DNA of 64,000 bases, taken from NCBI GenBank assembly GCA_963662715.1, contig OY759724.1, positions 332,670 to 396,669 on the forward strand, written 5' to 3'. This document shows positions 1-23,305 of the stretch, one piece after another. The notes under the pieces are model-generated. The model was not told the origin of the DNA and searched no databases. It saw only the letters and a list, made by a program, of their open reading frames with translations. The number at the start of each line of letters is the position of its first letter. The stretch's first letter is position 1. The DNA comes from Candidatus Omnitrophota bacterium. Lineage in GTDB: Bacteria; Omnitrophota; Gorgyraeia; Zapsychrales; JANLHA01. The position numbers and the translations under genes were made by a program.

Positions 1-606
1 TCAAAAGAATTAAAATTTAATAAAGATAGGCGATATAGTGTAATGTCACATATCTCATCATAGTTAAAGCTGACAACGGCATCGCCTTGTTGAAGCTCCT
101 TAAACACAGACGAATGATAAGCACAATATCCACTTTTTATAGAGCGATAACACCATTCATATATTGCCCTCTGAATAAAAGTCATCAGGTTTCTGGGGTT
201 CCCTTCAATCATCAAATGCGGCTTTTCAATAAAATATTGAAATATTATTTTGGTAAGAGAAATATCTTCGGCGGAGGTTAAGTATTCTTTCAAGATAGGG
301 TCGGTTTCTGCTAAAACTTCGAGACTGTTGATAATTTTGCACCGATTTTCTAGGGAGGGGAAAACGACTTCTGGTTCGACAACTCGTGCGATATGCTCTA
401 CAGCACAGAGTAGTGTGTAAAATTTCTCTATATCGGTGGTTGTTTCTGTTCGTTGAATTAACTCAGTATAGGCAATGCGGACATTGTCAAGATTGCCGTA
501 ATTAAACAGGGTATAAAAATCTTTAAGTAATGGCGGCTTAAAAGAGGGATTGATTGTTGAGGCCCCATAAGTGGCCCCTGCTCCGATAATGATAATCTTT
601 CGCATG
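1..606 (-). CDS. SIR2-like (SIR2_2-type) protein, N-terminal 202 aa. The gene runs off the window edge and is not in the ORF track; ATG at 606..604.
   Basis: Hand translation of the reverse strand: MRKIIIIGAGATYGASTINPSFKPPLLKDFYTLFNYGNL...VVSFNYDEICDITLYR. The GAG motif near the N-terminus and a TTNYD-like 'SFNYDE' motif match the SIR2_2 pattern seen in ThsA and in the neighbouring 679-aa protein. The segment is AT-rich relative to the rest of the window. Confidence 0.5.
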
Positions 607-674
607 TTTAATAATTTTTAGTTTTCTCCATAAGAAATCCCTAAAACACTCACTTGGCGTTAAAATTCTAAACA

Positions 675-1622
675 TTAGTTTGTCACAACATTACGTTCAT
701 TTTTGCTTAAAAAATCAAGAGTTCTTAAATATTTATTCTTTATCCTTTCTTCAGTTTGGTTTCTTTGCATAGACAAAAGAGCCTTACGGCAAGGTTTTTG
801 CCCTTCTGTCGAGGGGCTATTCCCAATTATAAATGCAGGTAAGTTAATATAATCTGCCTCACTTTTAACTGTATATTTTTTAAGTGGAATTGGATAATAC
901 GCATAATTTAAACGTTCATCAGCAGGCAAACCAAGTTCACCCAATCTTTTAACGGCTGTTTCAGTTAACATAAAACCAATCCAATCTTGCAATTCGCTAA
1001 ACATATTAGCTTCATTTAGGGCTGCACCAAAGTACAAGCCACTTTCGTCGTCGGCGTAAAACTCTCCAAAGGACATGCTGCCTCGAACAGGAATCTTCTT
1101 TTTAATAAGTGACACAAAGAAATAACGGATAAATGAGTCTATTGCTCGATAGGCCAAATCAGTATCATCAATAGTGTAAATGATAAAAGAATCCGAGAAT
1201 GTTATCTTTTTGAGTAAATGGCTATCAAAAGAATCTTTCTTAAAATGGTCAATGCTGTCCGCATACACTTCAAATACTTTTGTCCAATATGATGTGTTAA
1301 TCAAATCTTTGATGCCTAATAAATCTAAATACGCAACCCAACGATTGATATTAACGTAAGATTTCAGAGCAACTCCTTCTAGGCCTTTTTTGCGCTTAGG
1401 GACAGACTCCCTTTTCATCCATAAATCAAACTCCTCGCTTGTTAACCCCATCCATTCTGCAATACTTTTCCCCATCCCATCTAAACCTTGTTGATACGCC
1501 AAGCGAAATGCTCCCCGGGCTTCGTCTTCATTCTTAAAATGCCCATTCTTTTGCCAGAATTTTGCTGTGCTAACACCCCATCCACCGATTTCGATATTTT
1601 GTTTCATTCCACGCTGGTTCAT
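675..1622 (-). CDS. Hypothetical protein, 315 aa, no recognisable motif. Lies between two SIR2-like genes.
   Basis: Long ORF co-oriented with both SIR2-like flanking genes, 69 bp and 230 bp away. AT-rich like the rest of the island. I see no family signature. Confidence 0.55.
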   Translation of the reverse strand: MNQRGMKQNIEIGGWGVSTAKFWQKNGHFKNEDEARGAFRLAYQQGLDGMGKSIAEWMGLTSEEFDLWMKRESVPKRKKGLEGVALKSYVNINRWVAYLDLLGIKDLINTSYWTKVFEVYADSIDHFKKDSFDSHLLKKITFSDSFIIYTIDDTDLAYRAIDSFIRYFFVSLIKKKIPVRGSMSFGEFYADDESGLYFGAALNEANMFSELQDWIGFMLTETAVKRLGELGLPADERLNYAYYPIPLKKYTVKSEADYINLPAFIIGNSPSTEGQKPCRKALLSMQRNQTEERIKNKYLRTLDFLSKNERNVVTN

Positions 1623-1851
1623 ATAGAAGGCCCGTAAATAGATTCACTTCCTCATTTTAGTTACTAAGAATGTATCTTCTCCAAAAACTCCCCCAAAGTC
1701 CTCAAATAGTGACCCCATCGGTCAGCCATAGGTTTTATAAGATGAGTTTTCATAGTAGACTGATTATACGTGAGATGGGTGGATAAATCAATAAGGAGGT
1801 CTTTAAGAAAAACAGGCAAATCCACCAATTATTCATTTTGAACTTACGGGA

Positions 1852-3891
1852 TTATTCAACAACATTCTTTATATTTTCTGCGCGATCCCAGCATTCTATC
1901 GCTTCGCGATTCTTGCCCAAAGCGTAGTAAGTATTTCCTAAATTCGTAAGCCACATTTTCTCACCAGTCCTATCATCAATATTCCTTACTACCCGTAATG
2001 CCTGTTCATAATATTCTATCGCTTCTGTATATTTACAAAGATCCTCACAGACAACTCCCAAATTACCAAGCCATGTCCCTTCAGTAGCCATATCGCCAAT
2101 ATCCCTTGCCATTTTTAATGCCTGCTTATAGCATTCTATAGCTTTATCATTCTCAGCAAGACTATTGTAGACAATCCCTAGACTACCAAGCCATATTGCT
2201 TCATTTGCTCTATCGCCAATATCTTTCGCTATTTTTAATGCCTGCTCATAGTATTCTATGGCGTCGTGGTACTTGCCCATACTATGGTAGACATTCCCCA
2301 AATTACCAAGTATCGCCCCTTCACTTGGTTTATTACCAATTTCCCGCATTATCTGTAATGCTTGTTCAAAATACTCTATTGCTTTGATAGACTCGTTAAG
2401 GCAATGACAAATTTTCCCCAGATTGCTAAGCTCTCTTCCTTCATTGACTTTATCACCAATCTTCCTGGATATTTTCAATCCCAGTTCATAATATTCCCTC
2501 GCTTTATGAAACTCGTTAAGTTCACAATAGGCATTTCCTAAATTGCTAAGTATCGCCCCTTCCTCAGGACAATGGCCAATCTTCTGTATTATTCGTAGTC
2601 CTCGGACATAATATTCTATAGCTTTGCGATATTCACTAAGACCAGAGTAGATAATTCCCAAATTACCAAGACACGACCCTTCTCCGGTCCTATCACCAAT
2701 ATCCCTTGCTATACGTAGTGCACGCTCGTAATAGATCATCGCTGACCTCAATTCTGAGATTGATATACAAATTGCTCCTAATATACACATTTTTTCAGCA
2801 GGAGATATCCGACTCACCCAACGTGTGATTTTATTCTTCCAAAGTATCTCCCGCTGGGCTATTTTTTTTTCATTAATTCCATCTAAATAAGACCCCTCAC
2901 AGTTAACATCATTCCAAAGCCGCGTAATCAACTCATTCGTGTTATATCCCAGTCTCACTCCTTCGAAATCTTTCAACGTGTTATGCACTTTATCAAAATG
3001 TTCCTCCCCCCTATGATTAACTCCCTGCAAACGCTCCGCTGATAATTTTTGAACCCAAGGAGCATCAGTTGTATGCTCCACATAAATCACTCTTTTAGCT
3101 TTTACTTTTACGGCTTGTATTTGTGGAACCAAATCAAAGGCGTCGGAGCAGCTATACCCGAGGATAAGAACGATTTTGTGTCCGCCAGTGGAGAACATCT
3201 GGTTGATAACGTGATTTCGTTGTACAGCTAACTTCTGACTAGCCACTTGCTTAAGTGTAATCGCAAGGTTCTTTTTATCATGAACACTGCCGTGAACTTT
3301 CACCAATTGGATGCCTTTACCATTCCACTCGATTCTTTCAAGATCGTCCTCTCTGAAATATAGTGCATACCCAATCCCATCTTTTATCGATTCAAGTGCA
3401 AGAGCTTTTTCAATCAATTGGTCAAAATTTGTTGTCACTACAACCGTTATCTTTTGCTCTTTTAACAATCTAGCCAAAAAAATATGATTGGCGTTAGGCG
3501 TGACCGCATTGGGCTTCGGCTCATCTGCGTCATAAACTGTGTAGAGCAATTCTGCGTTGCCTCCATCATTCAACTTTTCGACAAATAGTTCAAATGGCAT
3601 CTTGTGGAATATTTTTCTAATCACTACTTCAGACATTCCTGTCGCTGCACTAATTTGGGTGATTAATTCCAGCTCTCTTTGGGCAGAACTCTTCTTGCCT
3701 TGCGTCATTTGATTGATTTCATTTATTCTTTCATCAGAAACATCATTCAACCGCAACAACATATACGGAACGAATTGAGCTATTACTGGCAGACCAGAAT
3801 TAAAAGAAATTCCTGCCCCACAAAAGACAACCAGTTCCTTTTTCTTTATTGCCATCGCTATTTCTGTTATGATTCCTTCTGTCTCATTCAT
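1852..3891 (-). CDS. SIR2-domain protein fused to about 10 TPR-like 40-aa repeats (679 aa)
   Basis: N-terminal LVVFCGAGISFNSGLP, then VVTTNFDQLIE and KVHGSV, are classic SIR2/SIR2_2 motifs. The C-terminal half is a run of ...AIEYYEQAL(K/R)IARDIGDRxGEGxxLGNLG... repeats. These show on the DNA as a roughly 120-bp periodicity across 1900..2800. Confidence 0.75.
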   Translation of the reverse strand: MNETEGIITEIAMAIKKKELVVFCGAGISFNSGLPVIAQFVPYMLLRLNDVSDERINEINQMTQGKKSSAQRELELITQISAATGMSEVVIRKIFHKMPFELFVEKLNDGGNAELLYTVYDADEPKPNAVTPNANHIFLARLLKEQKITVVVTTNFDQLIEKALALESIKDGIGYALYFREDDLERIEWNGKGIQLVKVHGSVHDKKNLAITLKQVASQKLAVQRNHVINQMFSTGGHKIVLILGYSCSDAFDLVPQIQAVKVKAKRVIYVEHTTDAPWVQKLSAERLQGVNHRGEEHFDKVHNTLKDFEGVRLGYNTNELITRLWNDVNCEGSYLDGINEKKIAQREILWKNKITRWVSRISPAEKMCILGAICISISELRSAMIYYERALRIARDIGDRTGEGSCLGNLGIIYSGLSEYRKAIEYYVRGLRIIQKIGHCPEEGAILSNLGNAYCELNEFHKAREYYELGLKISRKIGDKVNEGRELSNLGKICHCLNESIKAIEYFEQALQIMREIGNKPSEGAILGNLGNVYHSMGKYHDAIEYYEQALKIAKDIGDRANEAIWLGSLGIVYNSLAENDKAIECYKQALKMARDIGDMATEGTWLGNLGVVCEDLCKYTEAIEYYEQALRVVRNIDDRTGEKMWLTNLGNTYYALGKNREAIECWDRAENIKNVVE

Positions 3892-4216
3892 TTATGCTTT
3901 CCTTTTTCTGGTAACATCGAAAACTTTTTCCGTCTATTCCAAAATTTTTAAACCAGTTACCCAATTTCAACAATCCGTTTTAAGACGCTTTCCGTAGTCC
4001 TCCTGTAGCGCGTCCATCGCCCAGCCTATGATCCTCTTTTCAAGAAAAAAAATTGTTTGTTTTTATTCAGGCATCACTCATCATATTCTTTTTCATTCTT
4101 AGTAGTCTTTAAATGTTTGTTCTACTTTTAATAAAATTTTCTAAGTCTTTTGGATAAATCCTCCACTTGCCAATCTTTATTGCATTTAACCGTTTTGTCT
4201 AGATAAGGTCTCTTAT

Positions 4217-4276
4217 CTAGTCTTCGGTGACGCAGAGTTTTTCAACCACTTCTTTAACAGTGAGGTAGTTACGCAT
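4217..4276 (-). pseudogene. Remnant of an AlpA/excisionase-type HTH gene: 19 codons, then a stop
   Basis: The reverse strand reads ATG CGT AAC TAC CTC ACT GTT AAA GAA GTG GTT GAA AAA CTC TGC GTC ACC GAA GAC TAG, giving MRNYLTVKEVVEKLCVTED*. This is the typical start of phage/ICE excisionase-type HTH proteins (M..LLTVKEVAELLGVS), truncated. The surrounding 3892..5244 has no intact ORF. Confidence 0.25.
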
Positions 4277-5235
4277 GTCTTACATTGAGTTGACCTCGTT
4301 TTTTTGACAAATTTATCAAATTACTATTTATTCCTATTAAATTTTATTGTATGCTCGTTACTCTTATAAAGTCAATGGAATTCAAGTACTATATTGTTTT
4401 ATCTCTTCAAATTCCTGCATGAATTCTCTGAACCGTGCCAGTTGCAGACGTTCTTCATCTAGTCGTACTATGCAGTGAGTTTGCGTAGCGATAAGAATCT
4501 AAGGCTGACTGGATCATTCTTATTGCTTTTAAAAGAATCTTTAATCTGTTCGGGGAGAGCTAGTGTTCCGAGAATTCTTGCTATGCATGACTAGTCTTCT
4601 CCAGTGTAACCGCAAGTTCTCTAACGACGCTGTTTATGCCGTGTGCTTCTTTAATCCTCACGTAATATTCTGTTTTCTCAAGGGAAAACTATTCTAGGAG
4701 TCTTATGTGGGTTTGATACATATTTCAGACTCTTTTTTGATTGTATCAATGTGGCCTAAGTCTTCAGAGGGGGGCAGAGACGACAACACTACTTATGATT
4801 TTTATTAACGATGTAAAAAAAAATTCAACCCAATAGGTGCGTGACTGTGTGAAGAAACTTTTTTTGAGGTGCTGGATGAATTCAATCATATCTGATGGAG
4901 AAAGGAGTATCTTCCCTCCATCAGAAAATTGCTTTCCGTTTTGCGAAAAAACGACTTGTGTTACACAAGTACGCTGGTTGCAAAACGGGCACAACTGGGG
5001 TTAATCACTTCAGTAGAAACCGCACAGTTCTGAGCCATAATTACATGCTCTTTAACTTTCCTTAACATCTTAAAATTTACAAAATCACGGGAGGGAATCT
5101 ATTTCTATTCCACCACATTTCCACCACATAAAATCGATTCAAATTGAAAAAACGCGAATGTCATGGCTGACCATGGCTTGCAGTAACTTGTAATGTAAAT
5201 CATTGATTTATATAGAGAAATGATATTTTTGGCAC

Positions 5236-5264
5236 AAAATAATGGGGTATCTTGCGATACCCCA
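5236..5264 (-). terminator. Rho-independent terminator of ssrA
   Basis: Immediately after the tmRNA 3' end the minus strand reads GGGGTATC-GCAA-GATACCCC followed by ATTATTTTG. Confidence 0.5.
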
Positions 5265-5274
5265 AAACATAAAG

Positions 5275-5664
5275 TGGAGGTGCGGGGAATCGAACCCCGG
5301 TCCTTCAGCTGCTTTCCGTAAGCCTCTACATGCTTAGTCTGCCGTTTACAATCACCTGAAAATCTCCGGCAAACAGGATATCCTCAGGCTATCCTTCTTA
5401 AGTTTCGCCGTGGCCCCGAAGGCCCTGGCCACAGCTAGCCTGCTGAATGTCCTCTTAACAGCCCACAGGCCTGACGGTTAAAAGGGCCTCTCTTTTTTAT
5501 TAAGCGAGGACTGGTTCGCCAGCAAAAATCGGTTCTACGATTTCGTTGGCTTTAGCGAGAATAGATTCGCCATTTGTGTGTGCCCGGATGATTAACGAGG
5601 CCAACCAGGCATCCTCGGCATGCCACTTACAGTCTCTCAACTGAAGTCGAGACCAATCACCCCC
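5275..5664 (-). ncRNA. ssrA: tmRNA (transfer-messenger RNA, SsrA)
   Basis: The reverse complement starts GGGGGTGATTGGTCTCGAC and ends ...GGACCGGGGTTCGATTCCCCGCACCTCCA. That gives a 7-bp acceptor stem with a G3:U70 pair, a T-arm GGTTCGATTCC and discriminator A. The internal tag reading frame is ...GCC AAC GAA ATC GTA GAA CCG ATT TTT GCT GGC GAA CCA GTC CTC GCT TAA TAA. smpB lies immediately upstream on the same strand. Confidence 0.9.
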
Positions 5665-5693
5665 AAATCATGAACAATTCGAAAGTGTCTTTT

Positions 5694-5721
5694 ATTATAC
5701 AACAAAATATTTTTGAAACAA
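5694..5721 (-). promoter_or_regulatory. Putative sigma70-like ssrA promoter (-35 TTGTTT, 16-nt spacer, -10 TATAAT)
   Basis: The minus strand reads TTGTTTcaaaaatattttgttgTATAAT about 30 nt upstream of the mature tmRNA 5' end. tmRNA is processed from a precursor, so the longer distance is acceptable. Confidence 0.35.
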
Positions 5722-5760
5722 AATATTTGCTGACTCCCCTAATGTCATCCCTTCTTTTCA

Positions 5761-6222
5761 TCAGGTCTTACGCTTGACCACCTTTAACGACTGCCGCAAG
5801 GCCCGGTCAATGTCCCGCTTTTTCATGGCTTCCCTTTTATCATAAAGCCTTTTTCCGGTCCCTAAAGCCAGTTCCACCTTGACCAGGCCGCGGTTATTCA
5901 TATAAATTTTCGTCGGCACCAGGACCTTGCCCCGCTCTATCACCATAGAAGAAATTTTCTTTATCTCCCGCTTGTGCATCAACAGCCTTCTGGCGCGGTC
6001 AGGCTCTTCGTTCATATAGCTTGCTTCTTTATAAGGGTTGATATGCAGGCTGTAAAGGATCACTTCCCCGTTTTCGATCTTCGCAAAACTGTCTTTGAAG
6101 TTCACAAAACCCGCACGGACAGACTTCACTTCGCCCCCCTTCAACTCAATCCCGCATTCCCATGTCTGGGACAGGAAATAGTTATGATAAGCTTTTTTAT
6201 TTGTCGCCACAGGTTTTGCCAT
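5761..6222 (-). CDS. smpB: SsrA-binding protein SmpB
   Basis: 153 aa with strong similarity to SmpB (MAKPV...KKAYHNY...GIELKGGEVKS...LLMHKREI). Adjacent to ssrA. Confidence 0.9.
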   Translation of the reverse strand: MAKPVATNKKAYHNYFLSQTWECGIELKGGEVKSVRAGFVNFKDSFAKIENGEVILYSLHINPYKEASYMNEEPDRARRLLMHKREIKKISSMVIERGKVLVPTKIYMNNRGLVKVELALGTGKRLYDKREAMKKRDIDRALRQSLKVVKRKT

Positions 6223-6224
6223 AA

Positions 6225-7181
6225 TTAAGAGGGCCCCGCCAAAAAATTATAGATTGTTAAAACAAACGGGATTGTCAGAACACTCATAACAGACCCCCAA
6301 AAGATCCCCTGATTAACCAATTCGGAATCCACCTTAAAATAACGGGTCATCATGGATAAGGAAACGGCGCTGGGGACCGCGGCTTCGATAACAACAAGAA
6401 AACCAAAGCTGTACCCTATATGAAAAATCTTAACAACAGCCAAGGCCAGCAGCGGCAATACGATCAGTTTCCCGACAATAAGAAGAGAGATGTCTGCCTT
6501 CCGCCGCAGCTGAAGTTTTGTCTTGGCCAAGTTCCCCCCGACAACGATCATGGCCAAAGGAAGCGTGCAGCCGGAAAACATCTCCACCGGTTTTAATACT
6601 GTCTGCGGAATCCACCGGTGCCCCCCCAAGAAAATCAGGATCAATGTGCATATCGTCGTAATAAACGGCGGGTTCAGCAGCCGGGACCAGTAAATCTTCT
6701 TGTCATGCTCACTGGTCAGGAGCCAGACGCCGAGGGACCAGACGGCGAAATCAAACCCCATGATCAATAAAAAAATATTAACCGTCAGCTGATGCTGCAT
6801 TTTCCCCTCAAATAAAGACGCCACCAGCATTAAGGGAAAATACCCGTAATTCGCGAAACTCATCAGGGCCGTAAAATGATTTTTATTAGAGCACTGCGGA
6901 TGGAAAAGCAGAATGCCGCGGCTGACAACCCACCCGCTGAGAACCATCGCCAGACTCAAGGCAGGATACGCCCACCAGTTTGCGTATTCCTTAAAATCAA
7001 AATGCTGCGTGAGATGAAAAAAAATCATCTGCGGCAGAAACAGCTTAACCAGCAAGTTCGAAAGCGTATCCAAGCCCTGATCATCCAGGATAGCCCGCTT
7101 GACCAAAAAAAACCCCACACCCGCCATAAAAAGAATTTGCAGGGTCGCCAACAGTGTCGCCTGAAAAGTATCCATTAACAT
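6225..7181 (-). CDS. AEC-family (auxin efflux carrier / malate permease-like) membrane transporter
   Basis: 318-aa polytopic membrane protein with about 10 TM helices. The N-terminus MLMDTFQATLLATLQILFMAGVGFFLVKR is typical of the AEC/MleP family. Confidence 0.7.
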   Translation of the reverse strand: MLMDTFQATLLATLQILFMAGVGFFLVKRAILDDQGLDTLSNLLVKLFLPQMIFFHLTQHFDFKEYANWWAYPALSLAMVLSGWVVSRGILLFHPQCSNKNHFTALMSFANYGYFPLMLVASLFEGKMQHQLTVNIFLLIMGFDFAVWSLGVWLLTSEHDKKIYWSRLLNPPFITTICTLILIFLGGHRWIPQTVLKPVEMFSGCTLPLAMIVVGGNLAKTKLQLRRKADISLLIVGKLIVLPLLALAVVKIFHIGYSFGFLVVIEAAVPSAVSLSMMTRYFKVDSELVNQGIFWGSVMSVLTIPFVLTIYNFLAGPS

Positions 7182-7415
7182 AGTAAAGGATTATAACAAC
7201 TTAACCTGTATTGAGCAACGGATTATTGGTAAGAGGCGATATTGGCAGCATTTTCCGGGTCCTTTCTCGGACCGCGCTTAAAAGAAGGGAAAATATTGAC
7301 ATAATATCCTTAAACCGCTATACTTTGAGCTACGATTTCACGCTGTGTTTTTTCGGACTTGATTCCGGCACGAGGGAATGTTGCCGCTCTTAAGGCATTT
7401 ATTTTGATAGACATT

Positions 7416-7499
7416 GCCGAAGTGGCGAAATTGGTAGACGCGCACGTTTCAGGGGCGTGTGGCCTTACGGCCATGTGGGTTCGAGTCCCACCTTCGGCA
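7416..7499 (+). tRNA. tRNA-Leu (anticodon CAG), class II with long variable arm
   Basis: Manual fold: acceptor GCCGAAG/CTTCGGC, anticodon stem CACGT/GCGTG, loop TTCAGGG (U33, anticodon CAG), variable-arm hairpin GGCC-TTAC-GGCC, T-arm GTGGG-TTCGAGT-CCCAC, discriminator A. Total 84 nt. Confidence 0.9.
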
Positions 7500-7509
7500 C
7501 TTTATTCTT

Positions 7510-7560
7510 AAGGACACAAAACTTAATAATTCCGCTATTAAGTATTGTGTCCTTTTATTT
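7510..7560 (+). terminator. Rho-independent terminator after tRNA-Leu
   Basis: Long hairpin AAGGACACAAAACTTAATA / TATTAAGTATTGTGTCCTT with an ATTCCGC loop, followed by TTATTT. Confidence 0.55.
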
Positions 7561-7756
7561 ATCCTCTGGTTTTTCCCTTGCTGTCCGAAATTTTACGTAA
7601 TAAAATGAGGACTAATTCTGCCAATATGGCAGAAGATAAAAACACGGTAAAATCGTGGGGGACAACATCATTGACGGAGCCGACCGGGCACGCTTCACGC
7701 GGTGGATCGCCGACGCTACAGAACAACCCTTTTTACTAGAATTGGACGGATAAACC

Positions 7757-9190
7757 ATGGACCATACTCAAACTCAACTTCTGATCATCGGGGCCGGCCC
7801 CGGCGGATATGTCGCTGCCTTTCACGCCGCTGATTCCGGCCTGAATGTTACTTTAATTGACCGCGAAAAAAATCCCGGAGGCGTTTGCCTCTTCCGCGGC
7901 TGCATCCCTTCCAAAGCTTTACTGCATGTGGCGCGCATCCTTTCCGACGCCAGGGACGCCAAAGCGTTTGGGGTAGAATTCCGCGAACCGGATATTCATC
8001 CGGAAATTGTCCGCAAATGGAAGAACAGCGTCGTTGATAAATTGACCGGGGGGCTGGGGCAGCTGTCCCGGCAGAGAAACATCAACTTTATCCAGGGAGA
8101 AGCTGCTTTTCTTGATTCTCAAAATGTCGAAGTCAAAACAGCTGACGGCACGTTGTCTCAAATCCATTTCGACCATGCTATCATCGCGACCGGGTCTCAG
8201 CCTGTCACCCTTCCCTTTGCCCCTGAGTCGCCGCGGGTCATGGACTCCACGGCGGCTTTGGAATTAGCTGAAATCCCGCCGAGACTTCTTGTTATCGGCG
8301 GAGGATATATCGGACTGGAACTGGGGTCGGTTTATGCCGAACTGGGCAGCACGGTATCTGTCGTAGAAATGACGCCGCAGCTCCTTCCGGGAGTCGATCC
8401 GGACTTAAGCATGATCCTGAAAAAAAGGCTCCGGCTGAAATTCGAGGCCATCAAATGTCATACCCGGGTCACAGGACTGCAGGACACGGGGTCGGCCGTC
8501 GAGGTGACTTTCGAAGACGCCAAGGGGCAGACAAATTCCGATTCATACGACAAAGTCCTTATCGCCATCGGCCGCAAACCGGACGCCTCCTCCCTGCGGC
8601 TGGAAAAAACAAAAGTCCGATTAACAGACCGCGGGTTTATTCAAATCAATGCCCAGCGCCGGACAGACGACCCCGCTATTTACGCGATCGGGGATGTCGC
8701 CGGGAACCCTATGCTGGCGCATAAAGCGTCTCACGAAGCCCGGGTGGCGGTGGACGCGATCCTCGGGAAGAACACCGCTTTCTCCCCGCAGGCCATCCCG
8801 GCCGTGGTCTTTACCGATCCGGAAATTGCCTGGTGCGGCCTAACGCAAGCCCAGGTGCAGGATCAAGGCCCGGACATCAAAATTCTAAAATTCCCCTGGG
8901 CGGCTTCCGGACGGGCTGTCACGTTAAACCGCACTGACGGGTTGACAAAGATTATGACAGACGCCCGGACAGGCCGCATCCTTGGTGTGGCTCTCGTTGG
9001 GACCGGGGTCGGAGAAATGATCGCGGAAGGGGTTCTGGCTGTCGAGATGGGAGCGGTTGCCGAAGATCTTATGCTGAGCATCCATCCCCATCCGACGCTA
9101 TCGGAAACGATGATGGAAGCCGCCGAAAGTTTTTTCGGGCAGAGCATGCATATTTACAAGCCGCCCCGGAAAAAGCAGGACCTCATTTAA
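7757..9190 (+). CDS. lpdA: Dihydrolipoyl dehydrogenase (E3 component)
   Basis: 477 aa. FAD-binding GAGPGGY, the redox disulfide region CLFRGCIPSK, the NAD-binding GGGYIG and a C-terminal dimerisation domain. Confidence 0.9.
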   Translation: MDHTQTQLLIIGAGPGGYVAAFHAADSGLNVTLIDREKNPGGVCLFRGCIPSKALLHVARILSDARDAKAFGVEFREPDIHPEIVRKWKNSVVDKLTGGLGQLSRQRNINFIQGEAAFLDSQNVEVKTADGTLSQIHFDHAIIATGSQPVTLPFAPESPRVMDSTAALELAEIPPRLLVIGGGYIGLELGSVYAELGSTVSVVEMTPQLLPGVDPDLSMILKKRLRLKFEAIKCHTRVTGLQDTGSAVEVTFEDAKGQTNSDSYDKVLIAIGRKPDASSLRLEKTKVRLTDRGFIQINAQRRTDDPAIYAIGDVAGNPMLAHKASHEARVAVDAILGKNTAFSPQAIPAVVFTDPEIAWCGLTQAQVQDQGPDIKILKFPWAASGRAVTLNRTDGLTKIMTDARTGRILGVALVGTGVGEMIAEGVLAVEMGAVAEDLMLSIHPHPTLSETMMEAAESFFGQSMHIYKPPRKKQDLI

Positions 9191-10188
9191 TTTTCTTCTA
9201 TCCGGGTTAATAATTGCTTCAATTCCGGGCCGAAAATTTTTGAAAACTCGATAGAACCCAGCTGGTTCAGATGCTGGGAATTATAGAAATACTTTTCCTG
9301 CCGCGCCATTTCTGCCGAAGAGTAATCCATAAAAACAATGTCCCGGCCGTCACTCAGTTTTCTATAGATGGCTCTCACTTCATCCAAATTGACAACAAAC
9401 TCGTTGAACTGATAATAAACCGGGGCATAAACAAAAAACAGCCGGATACGTTTCTGCCGGCACAGCTGAACAAGCTCATTCAGAGCGGCCTTCCCCTCCT
9501 CGGTCATTTGCCCTTTAAGGCCTTGCGGATAAAGCCTTTTAACGGTTTTGACATCTTCCTCCTTATTCCAGTCTATGTTCACCGGGCAATAACCTTTGTA
9601 ACAGTCAACCGTATCTTCCCGGCCGGTCAACCCCTGGACCGCATCGACCGTAAAGTCATGACTTAACAGGGCAAAGCTGTATAAAGGGAAATACCTGGCT
9701 AAGATAAAATGTTTCGAAATCCCGGAAAGGGTTTGATAAATCTCTTTTTCGTTCAAATAAGGGATAAACTGTCCCGGATTATACGCCCGGGGCTTACGAA
9801 GGGTATTGCGTCCCACCACCTGAACAATAGCTTCCGGCGGGCGGTTGTATTTCAGGTAGACTTTTAACCGGGCCACCTGCAGGGCCAGGGAATTTCCCAG
9901 CAGGGCGATATTATAGACATCTTTATTCAGGTCCTCTTCCAGCAGAGAAACGTCCATGCCGGCTTGCGCCCGGGAAGCTCCAGTTATCAGGATGTCGGCA
10001 TTAATTTCTCCCCGGACAATACGGTTCCATTCCCCGAAATCGCCGCTTCTCCTCGCGTAAAACCCTTCCATCAAATAAGCCTGGACAGCCAGACTGAGGA
10101 TGACAAATATAACGGGAAAAGCGATCATGTCTCTTGCATTCTGATTCATGGCGTTAAAATTGGAAATAAATAAATTCGATCCCTTCAA
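9187..10188 (-). CDS. DltD/AlgJ-like membrane-anchored protein, the probable partner of the adjacent MBOAT acyltransferase
   Basis: 333 aa with an N-terminal TM helix and an extracytoplasmic domain. It overlaps the MBOAT gene's 3' end by 35 nt, which suggests translational coupling. An alternative start at M14 (10149) lies 4 nt after the MBOAT stop. The family assignment rests on context and weak resemblance. Confidence 0.4.
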   Translation of the reverse strand: MKGSNLFISNFNAMNQNARDMIAFPVIFVILSLAVQAYLMEGFYARRSGDFGEWNRIVRGEINADILITGASRAQAGMDVSLLEEDLNKDVYNIALLGNSLALQVARLKVYLKYNRPPEAIVQVVGRNTLRKPRAYNPGQFIPYLNEKEIYQTLSGISKHFILARYFPLYSFALLSHDFTVDAVQGLTGREDTVDCYKGYCPVNIDWNKEEDVKTVKRLYPQGLKGQMTEEGKAALNELVQLCRQKRIRLFFVYAPVYYQFNEFVVNLDEVRAIYRKLSDGRDIVFMDYSSAEMARQEKYFYNSQHLNQLGSIEFSKIFGPELKQLLTRIEEN

Positions 10189-11587
10189 ATTTCCCCAGAA
10201 AAATAATGCTGAAAAGTACCGCGTAATAAAAAATCCAGCGTGCGAACTTAGGCATCCTTAACGTCAGGTCTCTCAGCCGCCAGCGGCTCTGCAGCAAATG
10301 CACGATAATGAGCAGAGCTATCAAGGCCAAAGATACGGTAAAATCAAAAGTTTTATACGGGAAAGCGTCGTTGCCCCCCGGGCTGAACATATTTATTATA
10401 AGAGTTTTCACATCACGCAGCGACTGGGCTCTAAAAAATATCCATGAAAAAAGCACCAGGTGGTACGTGATGGCGATCCGAAGCATTTTGTACAGGGCCG
10501 GGACTCTCTCCAAATTCAGGAAAGACACCGCCCGGCGGCGCCAGCCTTCCGTCCAGACAGAAAAAAGCATATAAAATCCGTGAAGCGCCCCCCAGACAAC
10601 AAACGTCCAGTTCGCGCCGTGCCAAAGACCGCTGATAACAAAAACGAAAATAAGATTAAGGTACCACCGCTGTACCGGGACGCGGTTGCCGCCGAGAGGA
10701 ATGTACAAATAGTCCCGGAACCAGGTCGACAAAGAAATATGCCAGCGCCTCCAGAACTCGGCAATGGATACGGCAAAATAAGGGCGCCGGAAATTCTCCA
10801 TGATTTCAAAGCCCATGATCCTGGCGGCTCCGATAGCAATATCCGAATAGCCGGAGAAATCGCAATAAATTTGAAAAGCAAAAAACGTCGTGGCGATGTA
10901 AACCGTCGCGCCATGCCATTGCGCGGGATGCCCGTAAACAAAATTCACAAAAAAGGCCAAGCGGTCCGCGATGACGATCTTTTTAAAGAATCCCCATAAC
11001 ATAAGTTTCAGGCCGTCGCACATCCTGGGATAGTCGAAATCATGTTTTTTAAAAAACTGCGGCAACAAGTGGCCGGCCCGCTCAATCGGGCCTGCGACCA
11101 GCTGCGGGAAGAAAGATACGTATAAGGCAAAAACCCCTAAATGCCTTTGAGGCTCCAGTCTTTTACGGTAGACATCAATCGTATAGCTTAGCGTCTGAAA
11201 CGTATAAAAGGATATCCCTAAAGGAAGCAGGACATTCAGATGAGGGAGATACGCGGACAAACCGAGGGTCTTGAACAAGGCGTTAAAACTGGACGAGAAG
11301 AAATTAAAATATTTAAAAACCGCCAGAATGCCCAAATTCGTCATAAGGCTCAGGACAAGAAACATCCGGCGTTTCACAGGGTTTTCCGTCCGCCCCATCT
11401 GCCATCCGGCAGTGTAATCCACCAAGGTTGAAACCACCAGTAAAAGAACATACGGGATGTTCCAGAACATATAAAACACGTAACTCGCCAGAAGAAGCCA
11501 GGCCCAGCGGAAACGGAAAGGGAAAAGGAAATAAAGGGTAACAACGACAGGAAAAAATATTAAAAATTCTAGAGAATTAAAAAGCAT
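10154..11587 (-). CDS. MBOAT-family membrane-bound O-acyltransferase (AlgI/DltB/PatA-like)
   Basis: 477 aa, polytopic. Conserved MBOAT histidine region WRRWHISLSTWFRDYLYIPLGGNR and the C-terminal ...GLWHGANW motif. Confidence 0.8.
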   Translation of the reverse strand: MLFNSLEFLIFFPVVVTLYFLFPFRFRWAWLLLASYVFYMFWNIPYVLLLVVSTLVDYTAGWQMGRTENPVKRRMFLVLSLMTNLGILAVFKYFNFFSSSFNALFKTLGLSAYLPHLNVLLPLGISFYTFQTLSYTIDVYRKRLEPQRHLGVFALYVSFFPQLVAGPIERAGHLLPQFFKKHDFDYPRMCDGLKLMLWGFFKKIVIADRLAFFVNFVYGHPAQWHGATVYIATTFFAFQIYCDFSGYSDIAIGAARIMGFEIMENFRRPYFAVSIAEFWRRWHISLSTWFRDYLYIPLGGNRVPVQRWYLNLIFVFVISGLWHGANWTFVVWGALHGFYMLFSVWTEGWRRRAVSFLNLERVPALYKMLRIAITYHLVLFSWIFFRAQSLRDVKTLIINMFSPGGNDAFPYKTFDFTVSLALIALLIIVHLLQSRWRLRDLTLRMPKFARWIFYYAVLFSIIFLGKFEGIEFIYFQF

Positions 11588-11687
11588 GTGCGGGCTTGAT
11601 TATTGGTATTAGGTGTTTTGCAGAAGTCTCTCTATTTAGAAAATTATACCTTTCCTTCCTTGATTGGGGAAGGACATTCTTGGCTTT

Positions 11688-11732
11688 AAAAAAACGGGAC
11701 AGCATCCTTTTATTATAAAAATGCTGTCCCGT
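11688..11732 (-). terminator. Rho-independent terminator of the giant gene
   Basis: Perfect 12-bp inverted repeat ACGGGACAGCAT...ATGCTGTCCCGT. On the minus strand it is followed by TTTTTTT, and it lies 24 nt after the stop at 11756. Confidence 0.6.
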
Positions 11733-11755
11733 ATCTCTAAACAAACCTGATGTTT

Positions 11756-14700
11756 TTAATTATAATTCAGCATGCTGAGCTTATCATGTTCGTCATCGAA
11801 AAAGAACTGAATATCCGACTCCGCCGGTTCCTGCTGAGGCTTCCGGTCTGCGCCTTTTTCCGCCTCTGTGCCCCGGCCCCGGGTTGTCCCTCGGGCCGGA
11901 ACCGCATCCTCGGCACTCATGCCCAGCAGCATCGGCAGGTTGGGAATCGGCGTAATGTTGATAATAACCGGCAAGAACCCTTCTATATTCATATTCTGAA
12001 TCGGCTGTTGCTGAACAGGTAAAGGAACACCGCTTCCGTCCCGTCTGATCTGCAGGTTCAAAAGCGCCGGATTAAGATCGATACCACCAAGCGGCGAAGA
12101 AGTCGCCGGCGCGGCTCCTATATTCGCTGCCAGCCGTTGAACGGTATTGATAACCTGGCCCACGCCGCCCTTACTGTTCTTTTCTGTTCTCATAAGTTTG
12201 CTGAGGTCACGTTTCGCCTGTTTGGTCGAGATGCTGCCATCAGCGACAGAGACCAGAAGCTCCCTTGTCCCTTTATTTTTCAGATTAAATTTCGTCATAG
12301 CCTTGTCAACGGCTTCGATCGGAGAAGAAACGGCCGCGCTGGCGAGTTCAATGACTTCCGCTGTTGCCAACAGGTTTTGCACGGCAGATTCTTCATTTAC
12401 CCTGTCAAGGACTTCCGTAATGTCCCGGTCGACCCAATCTCCAGGTAATGTCACAGCAACATCAATCCCGGCCTCCTGCCATTGAAAAGCGACACCGGTT
12501 TCATCGGCCCTTACCCCGTCATAACGCAAAACCAAGTTTGCGCCTTCGACAAAAAAGTAGGTCCTCTTCCAAGGGAGGTCCTCCCCTTCATCAAATTCCG
12601 GCAAATTGGTTTTTACGGTCAGCTGTTCAGACAGCTTAAAGGGCACGGACAAATCGGTCAAACGTGTCTCCAGCTGACTCATGGTGTTGATCACAGATTC
12701 TAAGCGCGTCGCCTCTTCGATCGGGATGTCCCGGGCTAATTCAATCTGCAGCTCTTTGGCCGGGAGAATCTCTCCGACCTGCCGTAGAACATCCGCGACC
12801 TGATTCCGGACTGTCTCTAGCCTGGCGCGGTCCTTTTCCACCTCTATTTCAACCTGGGCCAAAAGCTGTTCGGCCTGGGTTAACAAGTCAGCCACCTTTT
12901 CTTTTTCATTCGCGGCAAACTGAATAGGAGAAGAGGCCCCCAACGACATGAAGTCAATTAACGGGAACCGTTCCGGACGCCCGGCATCAAGCATGAGCAG
13001 CTGCAAATCCCGGTTCTCATCCTCCGTCACCCGGACAGCCTCATTAAACACCCGGGCGGCCATAACTAATATTCTCTCAGCCAGAGCCCTGTCAACACCG
13101 TCAATTTCCATTAATTTATTTTCAGCTTCTGTTCTCCGGTCAGCCTTCTCTAATTCTATCGCCTCCTGGATGGCCTGGTAAGCATCGGCCGTCACAAGGT
13201 TATAGCCTAAGGCCAAACTGGCCGGAAGCAGCCTGAACATGGCCTCTCCGACAGGGTAAGCTCCGTCCATCAGCTTGATGCTGAGGATATGGGCGGCTTT
13301 GGCCAAAGGAGGATTCTGTTCAATAAAGACGATCTGATTGGCCAATAAAGCCCGCATAGCGGCATGAATCCAGCCGTTCTGGGCCCCGTTGACCTGCTTA
13401 TCAATATCCACGATTTGATTAATAAGCTGTACGTTCTCTTCGGCTAACCCAATCGTTGAGAGTATCGGGGAAGACACGCCTAAATTCGTATAATCCAAGA
13501 ACTCGATATACTTCGCCTCAACCCCGGTAAGAGCTACGGCAAAAGGCCCGTCTGTAGGAGTCCAGGTTAACAAGACATCCTGAAGAGCAAAAGGATTAGC
13601 ATACTCAAAATCCCCTTGTATTTCCCGGGATACCAGCACAGTTGCATCATCCGGAGCCCTTAATTCCAGACGTGTTGTACTATCAGGCTCATGGACATTA
13701 ACATACAAAACATTTCCGTCATGCTTGAATAAGATCCTTCTTGAAGCGCCCTGATTATTGTCAAGGTTCCGTCCCTCGCTGACCAGAGGCTCTCCCAGCA
13801 CGGCAAAATTCCCCAGCTGGCTTGCTGCTTCATAATTCTCAACTTCGTTATATTTCGTTCTTGCCCGCATCACGGCCGCCTGCCATTCCCCTGCCGAAGC
13901 AGCCGTCTCCAAGGCCTCGGCCAGGACAAACGGACTCTCTGACATCCAGTCGCCGGAAAGGGTTAATTCTTTTATATCCGTCTTGTCGTCCCTGGCGCGT
14001 AAAACAAGCCGGGTCGTCCCTTGTGTATGGTCCCGGTGAGCATAAAGGATACGTCCGTCATGCCCGAACAGGGCTCTCAAAGACGGGCCGTCATTTTCTG
14101 CCCAATTCTGTCCTTCCCGGACCATTGTTTTAACCGGAGAAGCAGCCAACAACGACTCTCCGATATAGGGGTCATGCTGAGCATGCAGGTCTCTGCCTGC
14201 CTCCATATTAGGGATTCCATTCTCGTCTGTCCTCAGCAAGGCAGCTCCCAGACCGGTTCCAGGCCCGATATAAAGAATGCGGGCATTGTCGATTCTTTGC
14301 CCGGACAACTCATATAATGCTGTGGCCCCGGCAAAAGCATCGTTCATCCACACCACGTTATAAGGTTCTCCTAATAAACCCTGCAACGTGCTGGCAGGGT
14401 TCACACCGAAAAATTGCGGGCGGTTGGGCCAGCTTTCTTGAGCGATAGCGCCATCAGCCTCTTTTTTCCCCGGATGCCCGACCCCGATTTCAAAGGAAAC
14501 CTCGTATTGTTCAGTCTCTAATTCATTCCGTAAAGTATTAATAAGAGGAAGCAGTGCGCTGTAATATTCTTCCGGTTGAACTTGTGCGATATCACGGTCT
14601 AATACAAACCGCTGCATCCCTCCTACAAATTGCACAAAATTTCCGTTTTCATCAAACTGGATCCCCTGCATCTTGGCAGAGGTCCCGCCCACATCAACAC

Positions 14701-17700
14701 CGATCACAACCTTGTTCCGTCTAAGGTCTTGATCAACCAGCAATGCTGCTCCTAATATCCCTGCTTCTTCCGCAACCATTTGATTTTCAGCTGAAAGGAT
14801 CGGCAGTATCGTAACGCCGGTTCCCAACACGCTTCGGATCTTCTGTTCCAGGATATTGCGGATAAAAGGATTATTGCTAATAGCCCCGCCGATCTCAATA
14901 ACGTTAATGCCTTTCCACTCATCTTCGATGGCTCTTAAAGCTTCTCCATCCTGACTCCGCAAGGCCCCTTCCATCAGCAGAGACGCAAACTGCGCATAAA
15001 CACCCCCGACAAATTCCAGCACCTGAGTGATAACATCTGCGGCCTCGGAATCGGGATAAGTTTGCAAGACCCAGCCCATAAACCTGGTATCCAGATTCCC
15101 CTGATATTCGGCCAACAGGTCCGTAAACAGGTCCTTGTTTTCCTTAAGGAGCTGTTCATTCACCTGGGCGAACATCCGGTTAATCGCCGTAGTCGAAGAA
15201 AGGTTCTCCGTTGTTAATCTTTCTGTTGTAAAAGACACCAGCACTTCACGCCCGTCCCGCAGGGAAATGGCTACAGGGATGGCTTCTAACGGCGAAGAAC
15301 CCAAGTTATTTTTTAAAGCGACAATATCTTTCACGGAATAGGGCTTCATGAAAATATCCGTAAAAAGGCCGCCTTTTAAACCTGTCGCGGCATCAACCTG
15401 CTGAAGCTCCTCCAGATTCGGGGCAAAACCCGTCGTGAGGATGATGGGGAGATCTCTTACCGCCCGGATCTCTCTGGCAAGTTGTTCGCCGGTCATCTGA
15501 GGCATGACGAAATCTGTCACCACCAGATCAATATCCGGATTCTCGTTAAACACTCTCAAGCCTTCTTCTCCGTTATCGGCGCGAATGACTTCCGCTTCGC
15601 CGAAAACCGCACCGAAGAGCTGCGCAGCCACATCTCCGACCATCTCTTCATCGTCCACAACAAGAATTTTCTTGATGGGCGTCGAAACCACGGCAGCAGT
15701 GGTGGTGGTAATTTTATCTTTTAAAGCGGTTAACTGCTCAAACTCATAAGGTTTATCCAGGACTTCATCAAATAATCCGCCCTTTAAACCGGTCGCTTCA
15801 TCCACGGCCGTTAATGTGTCGTCTATCGTCCCTGACAACAAGACAACCGGGACATTGTTTCCTGCGGCCCTCAACTCACGGGTGAACTGATCTCCGGTCA
15901 TAACAGGCATTTGCAAATCCGTTACAACCAGGTCAAAATCCCCGGACTCCCGGAAGGTCTGAAGGGCTTCCTGCCCGTTGTCTGCGGTAACGACTTCCAC
16001 GTCCCCGAACACGTCTTTCAAATCTTCGCTCACCAGGAGCAAAATGGATTTTGAATCATCGACCAGGAGGATCTTCTGAATCGGAGAAGCCACCGGGGCC
16101 GCTCTCAAGGAAGACTCTACCTGCGAGATAAACGCCTGCAAGTCTTCTGAATATTTGTTCGCCTGAATGATTCCCGACAATATTTCACTGACTTCTGTCT
16201 CTGTCGCCTGCGCGGCGGCAACATAAGCCCCTTCTATCTCAAAGAATACTTCGGCCACGATTTCCCCTGTCCTCCCATCATATAATTTATGAGAAATCTG
16301 GTTGGCCCCAGCAACCTCTTCCCCGATAACCATTACAGGGTTATTATCCCGCATAACCAATATGGTACGGGCAAAGGATTGCGGATGATAAGTCCGGATG
16401 ATACCCGTCTGCCCCTGGGCCATGGTCAACAATTCCAGCCCCGTTGTATCGATGACCGGGGATGAAGCAGGCGGCGTTGTCCTTACGAGCTCTAAGGCTC
16501 TAGCCGCATCCTCTTCCGTAATTCCAATCAAATCATTACGGAAAGAAACCCCGGCGCTTCTTTCTGCATCTTCCAAGCTCCCTGCCGTAAAATTGAACTT
16601 CCGCAGATCCTCCAGCCGAAAAGTAAAATACTGCGATATTTGGGCCGCTGTCGGAACCCGCCCTTGACTTGCTTCTATATCCATCCATTGCCGAAACAAC
16701 TCAATATCATCCCTATCCACCTCATATTCGCCCGTTACCATTCTCTCTATGGCAGCCGGCAACCCCGTCATCCATCCCCGATATCTCGGATGACTCAAGA
16801 TATACTTCTCTACCCCTACGGGCAGAAACGTTATGTCTTTTTCCGGGTCGGAGGAAAAATGCTCCCGGATATTCGTGGAGGATGTCCCGAACAAATTAAT
16901 ATGTCCTATCGGCCTTATAAATCCTCTTGCCATGTATTCCTTCATTTGAGCCACTTCCACCGGCATAGGCAGACTTTCAAATAATTCCCTGAAGTTGAAG
17001 GCCAACATCATGTCGATATTATTTCTTTGAAGATGGTCGGCCAACTCCTCTTTCATCCGGTCCATCTTTAAGACCGTATCCGGCTGAGGATGATCCCCGT
17101 CCATTTTAGGAGTCCTGTACCCATCGGTATCCATGTCGCTTGACGGGGCATAAACATGCATATGGTCCCCGCCGACCGCTGTATAGACCCACGTTGTCTT
17201 TCCTGTTCTGCCCCCGTTGATTTCAATCAGTTTCTTGTACTTCGTTTCGCCATCCGCCTCTGAACCGTTCAAAACTTTTGACAAGACAAGAAGTCCGTCA
17301 AAAAGATCCACCCATTCCTGCGCCATTTCATCGCGCTCCTCAAAAGTCGGGTTCAGCCCCTTCTTCTGCTTGCGGTAATCAAAGGCATGGTTGACGACAC
17401 CAACCTGGGAAATTTTCAATTGCGCCATGGCCCGCAAAACCGGTTCGAACTGGCCGAAATGCAGAGGATTCAACGCTGAGGCATAAACACCGACGATCGT
17501 ATCCCCGGTATCTGTTTCCTGCCCCGTAAACTCCGCGTCCTGTTCACTCCAGCGCACCTGCTGCAATTGCATCTCCCCGTTCATCATATGGACGCCGATT
17601 TCCCATAAAGATTCCTTCACCTTTCGTGTCCATTCACCGGCCAATTGCTCGTTTCGACCCGGTTCCTGACGCAGACTCCGCCTCACAAGATTATCAAAGA

Positions 17701-20476: not shown

Positions 20477-20701
20477 AATACAGTTCCCTCCTGGATTTTG
20501 GTAAAAAAATAGACTTTCTTATGAATTTACATAGAATTCTTGGGACAGGGAGATTTTTTGAAAGGGTATATAAAATATATCATGTATAAAGGGGAAACAC
20601 AAGAAAAGTTTATTATATAACATATTTATTTCCTTATATTTAAGAACTTGCCCAGGCCGTTTCCAAAAATTAGGGCACATAAAGGATAAAATAAGTCATA
20701 T

Positions 20702-21175
20702 TTACTGTGATTCCGGAGAAATATCCGTAATGTGAAATTCCGCTGTAAGCCCTTCCTCTAACTGATTTTGAGACGACTGTCCGGCATTAACCTCCAAAAC
20801 ATACAGGGCTTTTTGCGCAGGCGGGTAAACAGGACAGGGCGACGACTGGCACGGGGGGACGTTTTCTTCAATATGAACAATCCTCCGGTTATGATCCAGC
20901 CAGATGATATCTAGAGGAATATACGTATCTTTCATCCAGAAAGCATAGGCTCTTCGTTCCGGAAAAATAAAAAGCATCCCTTTCCCCGGCTCCAGGCTGG
21001 TGCGGAATTGCAGGCCTTGCGTCCTTTGTTCCTGAGTTAAAGCTAACTCGACTTCATAACACGTATCTGAGAAGCATACACTGTTGTTTTTGCTGACTTT
21101 TTTCTGACAGGAAGCAATAAAAAACAGCAGAAAAAAGGCCAGGCAGAAAAATCTGATATTTTTAGGCATCATCAC
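20702..21175 (-). CDS. DUF192-domain lipoprotein
   Basis: 157 aa. Lipoprotein-type signal FFIASC. The core ...QGLQFRTSLEPGKGMLFIF...AFWMKDTYIPLDIIWLD matches the DUF192 (COG1430) signature. Confidence 0.7.
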   Translation of the reverse strand: MMMPKNIRFFCLAFFLLFFIASCQKKVSKNNSVCFSDTCYEVELALTQEQRTQGLQFRTSLEPGKGMLFIFPERRAYAFWMKDTYIPLDIIWLDHNRRIVHIEENVPPCQSSPCPVYPPAQKALYVLEVNAGQSSQNQLEEGLTAEFHITDISPESQ

Positions 21176-21957
21176 AATTCATTTCCCGTGAGGTTCAAAT
21201 AATCCTTGAAGCGGAGCGCCCCGGTGATTTCCTTATGAACAATCCCCACGCGCTCGGAAAGATACGGATGCGTACGGAAATAATTGATCTGCTGGGCAGG
21301 TGCCCGGTCCTGTTCTTTTTTGAGGATATCCAGCATCGTTATCATTTCCTCGGCATCATAGCCTGCCTTCTTCATATATTTCACGGCCAGCCGGTCGGCT
21401 TCAAATTCATCACGCCGGGAATAGGCGAAAAAAACACTCGTATAGACGGCATTAACGCCCACAATGGCATCCGCATCCTGCGAGGCGATGGCCAAAGCCT
21501 GCAGAATGGTATACCCGTAAGCGCTCTGCATCCGTTTGATGCCGTGGCGGGCCGTAATATGGCCTAACTCATGCGCAATAACCCCGGCCAATTGATCATC
21601 ATTCTCCACCTTATCCATAAGGCCTTTAAAAACATAAATATACCCTCCGGGCAGACTCACGGCATTGATTTTATCCTCATCAATCACGCGGATCGTGTAA
21701 ACCACGTCTTTCCGGTCGACAACCGGAATTAAGCTCTCAAGAATTTTCTGAACCCGCGCATTGACATCGATGTCCTCGTTAATTTTATAGTTGCGTTCAA
21801 TTTGCCGGGCCACAGAATCCCCGATACGCACTTCTTTCTCCGTCCCGTAAATCAGCCGTTCCTCGCGCCCGGTCGCTAGATTATATTCCGAGGAACAGCC
21901 CCACAGGTTCAACAGGGACATCAGCATGACCAGCAAACAACCATGTCGCCTACTCAT
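21172..21957 (-). CDS. M48-family zinc metalloprotease (HtpX/BepA-like), lipoprotein. Start moved to M26 of the track ORF.
   Basis: HELGHITARH (HExxH) motif and an E-x-x-A-D-like downstream region. The ATG at 21957..21955 overlaps the maf stop as ATGA and yields an N-terminus MSRRHGCLLVMLMSLLNLWGCSS with a lipobox. The track ORF's 25-codon upstream extension (to 22032) runs inside maf. Confidence 0.75.
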   Translation of the reverse strand: MSRRHGCLLVMLMSLLNLWGCSSEYNLATGREERLIYGTEKEVRIGDSVARQIERNYKINEDIDVNARVQKILESLIPVVDRKDVVYTIRVIDEDKINAVSLPGGYIYVFKGLMDKVENDDQLAGVIAHELGHITARHGIKRMQSAYGYTILQALAIASQDADAIVGVNAVYTSVFFAYSRRDEFEADRLAVKYMKKAGYDAEEMITMLDILKKEQDRAPAQQINYFRTHPYLSERVGIVHKEITGALRFKDYLNLTGNEL

Positions 21958-22559: not shown

Positions 22560-22572
22560 AAGAAAAAAACAA

Positions 22573-23139: not shown

Positions 23140-23305
23140 ATTCCTGTCCTTTCCCTAAAAGATTAAGGATTTCCCGGCATCACGGCGAACCGATTTCCGG
23201 AACTTCCAAACGGCGCCGTCTGATTTCATTTTATACCTGACAACTTGAAAAACCGCTTATTCATAAAAACATGCCTTAAATAGCCTGCTCTGTTTTTTGC
23301 ACGGC

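Follow-up and report, generated by a model that had tools for sequence, protein, structure and literature searches.

We analysed 64,000 nucleotides (nt) of contig OY759724.1 from a Candidatus Omnitrophota bacterium, and the whole of this stretch is called the window below. Three genes at its beginning encode a SIR2 protein with a TPR array (SIR2-TPR), a 315-residue protein with a class III nucleotidyl-cyclase fold, and a second SIR2 protein that is cut by the window edge (SIR2-377). Positions 1..5271, which hold these genes and reach to the 3' end of the transfer-messenger RNA (tmRNA) gene ssrA, probably form the ssrA-proximal end of a horizontally acquired and partly decayed mosaic defence island, in which the three genes represent independent families and not a dedicated trio. 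An earlier note on this DNA had implied a three-gene system. Each of the three families, however, occurs elsewhere without the other two, and their combination was absent from about 150 related loci retrieved via any of the three proteins. The SIR2 genes belong to a well-known kind, and what could prove new is the cyclase-fold gene. All window genes given here are on the minus strand, and their order is right to left, from smpB to position 1.

The segment 1..5271 is clearly foreign in composition, since both its G+C content (GC) and its third-position G+C content (GC3) differ from those of the remaining sequence. The segment has a GC of 0.378, compared to 0.487 in 5272..64000 (58.7 kilobases, kb), where 1-kb windows vary with a standard deviation of 0.028 and do not fall below 0.409. 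In the three island genes GC3 is 0.34-0.36, and it reaches 0.61-0.63 in smpB and in the two genes beyond it on the tmRNA side, which are open reading frames (ORFs) of 318 and 477 residues, the latter presumably lpd-like. The lower GC reported in the earlier note is therefore reproduced. The same note had placed the genes directly 3' of the tmRNA gene. The segment does lie 3' of ssrA, but 1.4 kb without an intact gene (3892..5271) separate the tmRNA 3' end from the first intact gene, that of SIR2-TPR. The sole recognisable mobile-element remnant in this interval is an HTH_17 pseudogene of AlpA/excisionase type (4121..4267), which was recovered by six-frame translation, contains two in-frame stops and matches the Pfam family at E 1e-7 in the stop-masked translation (32.5 bits against a cut-off of 27). 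No remnant of an integrase was found in 3892..5271. No direct repeat of the tmRNA 3' end is present within the 64-kb window either, and the far border of the island would therefore lie beyond position 1. Of the proposal of an ssrA island, the foreign origin stands, backed by composition and by the HTH_17 pseudogene, whereas neither integrase nor tmRNA repeat is visible in the window and targeting of the tmRNA gene is circumstantial.

The SIR2-TPR and SIR2-377 proteins

SIR2-TPR (3891..1852) has 679 residues. Its SIR2_2 domain (nt 3849..3112, about residues 15-260) scores 46.7 bits with Pfam PF13289, for which the cut-off is 24.5, and contains the motifs FCGAGIS (23-29), TTNFD (153-157) and KVHGS (198-202). 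The NAD loop is thus present together with the catalytic residues N155, D157 and H200, which lie inside the last two motifs. Among the TPR families of Pfam, the repeat region is best matched by TPR_12 (196 bits). Profile searches hence agree with the earlier note, which had described a full set of SIR2 motifs fused to TPR-like repeats. The number of repeats had been put at about 10; the C-terminal half in fact consists of eight units of exactly 40 residues each (nt 2814..1855, about residues 360-679).

A search with the first 400 residues as query gave 197 homologues, most of which are 570-700 residues long and most of which list SIR2_2 and TPR Pfam domains. The architecture is therefore a widespread unit. 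In the three homologue contigs that were inspected, the gene stands alone among unrelated genes and the contexts are mutually unlike, with an MNT/HEPN toxin-antitoxin pair nearby in one contig and HD, HIT and TCAD9 genes in another. A hidden Markov model (HMM) of the cyclase-fold family detected no cyclase-fold gene near the SIR2-TPR relatives.

DSR1 and DSR2 share with SIR2-TPR an N-terminal SIR2_2 domain (GAG loop, catalytic Asn/Asp and His) and a helical-repeat region in one polypeptide. Both kinds of protein are found in defence islands, and the same logic would be expected of both, namely a sensor that releases the NAD-hydrolysing enzyme (NADase). On the model of these and other SIR2 defence proteins, SIR2-TPR would be a single-chain sensor-effector: its TPR array would keep the SIR2 domain silent until a phage-derived protein or peptide is bound, whereupon NAD+ would be hydrolysed by the released domain and the infection aborted. 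Although SIR2-TPR may work like DSR1 and DSR2, it falls outside their families. It has 679 residues compared to about 1000-1250, and its C-terminus is made of eight canonical 40-residue TPR units where DSR1/DSR2 have a DSR-specific region. The PADLOC Dsr1 model matches at E 3.9e-5 and only over residues 149-249, in the SIR2 part, while the score with the NCBIfam Dsr1 model is 21 bits, far below its cut-off of 1400. The SIR2 core also has weak matches to the PADLOC models for ThsA (E 1e-10) and for pAgo-associated SIR2.

The ORF at the window edge (1..605) comprises the first 201 codons of SIR2-377. In an exhaustive HMMER search its 201 residues were 100% identical to the start of a 377-residue protein (P0150), and 53 further relatives were obtained. 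This exhaustive search was needed, as the fragment alone had no homologue in a word-index search and no match among the models of Pfam, PADLOC and NCBIfam. Across 18 aligned members the motifs GAGA (8-11), NYD (181-183) and HGS (227-229) are invariant; the HGS motif with the catalytic His and the remaining gene fall outside the window edge. PADLOC SIR2 models match all 18 aligned members (P0150 at E 4.4e-9). Pfam SIR2_2 matches six of the 18, and P0150 is not among them. The AlphaFold2 model (predicted local distance difference test, pLDDT, 90.7) consists of a SIR2 fold only, and its best match is the SIR2 protein of Escherichia coli SIR2-HerA (Foldseek E 5.5e-9, probability 1.0), with a weak profile-to-PDB match to 8w9l (E 0.0047). 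On account of the motifs, the PADLOC SIR2 matches and the fold, we consider the edge ORF to be a real second SIR2 protein, as the earlier note had suspected from the partial gene.

The SIR2 protein of SIR2-HerA (Nezha) is the closest structural match of SIR2-377 and is of similar size (about 380-400 residues), but sequence identity is only about 13-15%. SIR2-HerA has an adjacent HerA gene; none was found within the window, which ends before the gene downstream of SIR2-377, or beside the SIR2-377 relatives in three inspected loci (L151, L068 and L071). The relative P0151 (45% identical) is solo, between the nuo operon and unrelated genes, and that in L071 is solo as well. No cyclase-fold gene was detected near SIR2-377 relatives with the cyclase-fold HMM. 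SIR2-377 would accordingly be described as a second, stand-alone SIR2 NADase of SIR2-HerA type, with relatives that lack HerA. AbiH, the lactococcal abortive-infection protein, is likewise a single-gene protein of similar size; its Pfam family (PF14253) weakly matches SIR2-377 and two relatives (3 of the 18) with 21 bits, which is below the family cut-off of 30.9. In L068 (1808..4801) the relative is split into N-terminal and C-terminal ORFs by a 549-residue ORF on the opposite strand, which we take from its sequence to be a putative transposase.

As far as it is visible in the window, the set of genes matches none of Thoeris, DSR1/2, SIR2-HerA and pAgo-SIR2, in line with the earlier note. Thoeris ThsA has a SIR2 NADase effector in common with the SIR2 proteins of the window, but no SLOG or TIR match was obtained in any of the three proteins, and the cyclase fold of the 315-residue protein is unrelated to the TIR fold of ThsB. 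Among the effectors of abortive infection, SIR2 NADases constitute a major class. Both the SIR2-TPR family, with at least 197 homologues, and the solo SIR2-377 family appear to be uncharacterised, and if they work alone, they would be compact sensor-effector proteins with triggers that could be mapped.

The 315-residue protein and its genomic contexts

The ORF of the 315-residue protein extends over 675..1622. The protein has no match in Pfam, NCBIfam or PADLOC, consistent with the earlier note, which had recognised no family, and its family has no sequence-profile match in PDB. The only database family match is to a PHROG of unknown function (E 7e-9). Fold comparison alone gave its identity: the structure prediction that the earlier note had proposed yielded a class III nucleotidyl-cyclase-fold domain at about residues 90-265 (nt 1355..828), and GGDEF and Cas10 palm domains scored lower in the comparison. 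An N-terminal extension of about 85 residues precedes this domain and includes a helical domain conserved at about residues 19-75 (nt 1568..1398), and two helices follow it at the C-terminus.

We found 28 homologues. Long forms of about 315-325 residues carry the extra N-terminal domain, and short forms of about 225-260 residues do not. The alignment of the family has the invariant residues F142-S143-D144, P178, R180 and G181 and the nearly invariant D100 and G103; D100 is in the context LDLLG, D144 in FSDSF and R180 in PVRG. We take D100 (in D-x-x-G) and D144 (in S-D, replacing G-D) to correspond to the two metal-binding aspartates of class III cyclases, and R180 to their phosphate-binding arginine. 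In canonical class III cyclases the transition state is stabilised by an Asn/Arg pair carried by the helix that follows the G-x-x-V motif. This pair is not conserved in the alignment: positions 203 and 207 vary, and the window protein has N203 and M207. Fold, two metal-binding aspartates and phosphate-binding arginine together place the modelled protein structurally in the class III superfamily. As the metal- and phosphate-binding residues are kept and the Asn/Arg pair is not, binding of nucleoside triphosphate (NTP) is likely and cyclase catalysis uncertain.

The protein is not a Pycsar cyclase by the available models. Its likeness to PycC is one of fold only, with no profile match to any Pfam, PADLOC or PDB cyclase (none in PADLOC at E <= 0.1), and neither of its neighbours, SIR2-TPR and SIR2-377, matches a domain binding cyclic nucleoside monophosphates, as would a Pycsar effector. 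It also differs from PycC and other class III cyclases in the extra N-terminal domain, the C-terminal helical pair and the unconserved Asn/Arg pair. In STAND/TPR transcription regulators (e.g. PDB 6yii), a class III cyclase-like ATP-binding domain is fused in the same chain with a LuxR-type helix-turn-helix (HTH). The cyclase-fold protein differs from these in being the product of a separate small gene beside STAND or TPR proteins, and a role in DNA binding is only putative.

The N-terminal domain of about 85 residues also stands alone in three proteins of 185-208 residues (P0025, P0026 and P0027) and is for this reason a mobile module. Its consensus is GHF+NEDEARGAF+LA.QQ.LDGMG ... WMG.T..E, for which there is no Pfam model. 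In one of the three proteins the domain is preceded by a stretch that we read by eye as a Fis-type HTH. The idea that the domain is a module resembling effector-associated domains and common to the neighbouring proteins was rejected, as the domain HMM matches the family only.

The gene is preceded by a leader of 111 base pairs (bp; 1623..1733). Its closest relative (P0029, locus L060) occurs in the metagenome-assembled genome (MAG) GCA_030153525.1 and on three other contigs. In blastn, L060 and the window share 92.5% DNA identity over 680..1733 only, that is, over the gene and its leader: the block begins 111 bp upstream of the start codon and ends at the stop codon. Because the shared block ends exactly there, the downstream partner was not inherited together with the gene. 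A promoter-like site, TTGATT-17-TATAAT (1791..1763), was found by promoter scan just upstream of the block. In L060 the upstream neighbour is Avs3 (2150 residues; PADLOC Avs3a E 2.6e-206), and genes of 368 and 181 residues and a 389-residue SIR2 gene (SIR2-389) are tightly packed downstream. Judged by these sequence comparisons, the gene is a portable cassette that travels with its own leader. The predicted RNA fold of the leader is unremarkable (z = -1.3), and it has no Rfam match. Small ORFs in this region (54 residues, 1828..1664, and 53 residues in L060) are probably not genes, since their C-terminal peptides over the shared DNA do not match.

Every long-form member with a readable context is inside a defence cluster (type I restriction-modification, STAND, Avs3, DSR1 or SIR2). 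In six loci with long forms of 57% identity (L001-L005 and L149), the cyclase-fold gene comes after hsdS of an hsdRMS set and is followed by a 1270-residue nSTAND5 NTPase and a DUF4062 gene. The last two, an nSTAND_NTPase5 protein without a PADLOC match and a DUF4062 protein matching the PADLOC candidate PDC-S60 (E 3e-21), form a recurrent and apparently uncatalogued module. In L148, with another long form of 57% identity, the cyclase-fold gene is directly upstream of DSR1, with a gap of 50 bp. This DSR1 (6704..10839) is split into two overlapping genes, coding for a 303-residue SIR2 part (PADLOC Dsr1 E 2e-74, model positions 6-283) and a 1075-residue remainder (E 7.5e-113, model positions 513-1225).

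Each of the four independent long-form architectures has an NADase-type gene in the same orientation, at the first to third position downstream of the cyclase-fold gene. It is SIR2-377 at +1 in the window, the SIR2 part of DSR1 at +1 in L148, SIR2-389 at +3 in L060 and DUF4062 at +2 in L001/L002; the contig of L149 ends before that position. DUF4062 has been reported as a TIR-like NADase (bioRxiv 10.64898/2026.05.01.722283). The gap from the long-form gene to the very next gene is 2-69 bp. There is no homology among the partner proteins, or between them and the SIR2 proteins of the window. When the neighbourhoods of other cyclase-fold genes were searched with an HMM of SIR2-377, the only match was the distant SIR2-389 in L060. 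The edge ORF might have been the beginning of the STAND protein encoded after the cyclase-fold gene in L001/L002, but the two have no similarity and the idea was rejected.

Short-form relatives, in 54 genomic loci, have no conserved neighbour in all-against-all clustering and in Pfam and PADLOC scans. Their 147 flanking proteins were distributed over 164 Pfam families, none with more than three members, and PADLOC matches were limited to a few type I restriction-modification loci. Only two cyclase-fold relatives were found in viral contigs. Longer relatives of 445-447 residues were seen in L046 (9416..10753) and L033 (9458..10801). The L046 copy, from a Methanosarcina MAG, is among type I restriction-modification genes, with an N6-methylase-like gene three genes upstream and a 992-residue downstream gene that clusters with proteins of about 1050 residues from two other loci, probably hsdR.

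Explanations for the three genes

We take the 315-residue protein of the mosaic island to be the product of a portable gene that most likely acts, independently of its partner, as an NTP-binding regulator or sensor of downstream genes or, failing that, constitutes a defence gene by itself. A role as dedicated second-messenger synthase is less likely. Partner-independent action is favoured because the partner NADases share no receptor domain and because DSR1 works alone. DSR1 acts as a single gene in published systems, and this module, at least, can hence do without the cyclase-fold gene. A classical second-messenger relay is disfavoured for the same two reasons and because the transition-state residues are not conserved. 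The analysis establishes the identities of the domains, the folds, the composition and the mosaic make-up of the neighbourhoods; NADase activity, a phage trigger and any regulatory function of the cyclase-fold protein are inferences.

Several observations weigh against this interpretation of the island and of the 315-residue protein. The gap of 69 bp between the 315-residue gene and SIR2-377 contains no terminator predicted by terminator scan, and this, together with the NADase gene downstream in four of four architectures, could mean a real functional coupling and not mere adjacency. It is chiefly because of the downstream pattern that a functional link should not be dismissed, although the pattern was recognised post hoc and comprises only four independent long-form architectures. 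The N-terminal domain is modelled with moderate confidence only (pLDDT about 57-73), and the label HTH-like that we attached to it is our own reading of the sequence. A full-text literature search returned no paper on SIR2-TPR. Finally, a HerA-type partner, an integrase or a second att site could be located beyond position 1.

The 315-residue protein and SIR2-377 might instead be a pair of Pycsar or Thoeris kind, in which a nucleotide messenger made upon infection activates the NADase and SIR2-TPR is separate. We regard such two-gene signalling as unlikely. Neither the PADLOC Pycsar models nor any other PADLOC model matches the 315-residue protein, and the class III transition-state pair is unconserved in its family. 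On the effector side, SIR2-377, DSR1, SIR2-389 and DUF4062 are unrelated and have no common ligand-binding domain; the model of SIR2-377 has nothing in addition to the SIR2 fold, and its relatives occur without any cyclase-fold gene. The end of the shared DNA at the stop codon also argues against a co-inherited pair. Extending the system to all three genes, such that the cyclase-fold protein would link the TPR sensor-NADase to the second NADase, is highly improbable. The genes are indeed co-oriented, have low GC in common and have no strong terminator between them, but the combination is not seen in the related loci, a gap of 229 bp with the promoter-like site lies ahead of the 315-residue gene, and the closest relative of this gene has different neighbours on both sides.

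At the other extreme, the 315-residue protein may have no part in defence and be a cyclase-like protein of housekeeping or signalling function, encoded by chance in variable regions, with only the SIR2 genes being defensive. The short forms, with their varied flanks and few defence genes nearby, and the scarcity of relatives in viral contigs would fit this. All readable long forms, however, are inside defence clusters, and the gene is transferred among these as a cassette, so that we consider a non-defence role quite unlikely. We give as little credence to a more speculative reading, that the long form is a portable front-end which plugs a nucleotide-making or NTP-sensing module into unrelated NADases and triggers or licenses them. 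If true, this would be a signalling logic distinct from those of CBASS, Pycsar, Thoeris and type III CRISPR. Nothing specific on cyclase-like genes of defence islands emerged from literature searches. Should the cyclase-fold gene regulate or signal to its neighbours, it would represent a new control layer in defence islands and a marker for finding further NADase systems; if it only happens to lie beside them, the mosaic defence island is an ordinary one.

The tmRNA gene and other features of the window

The tmRNA gene (5664..5272) was predicted by ARAGORN and matches Rfam RF00023 with 173 bits. Its 3' end, at position 5272, faces the AT-rich segment, and a terminator scan placed a terminator-like hairpin immediately 3' of it (5264..5243). 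On the other side is smpB (6222..5761). The tag peptide predicted by ARAGORN is long, with 23 residues (GESILAKANEIVEPIFAGEPVLA). Outside the island, the only other 1-kb stretches with GC below 0.42 are at about 19772-20771 (0.413) and 56272-57271 (0.409). By far the largest ORF of the window, with 2906 residues, occupies 11756..20476 on the minus strand.

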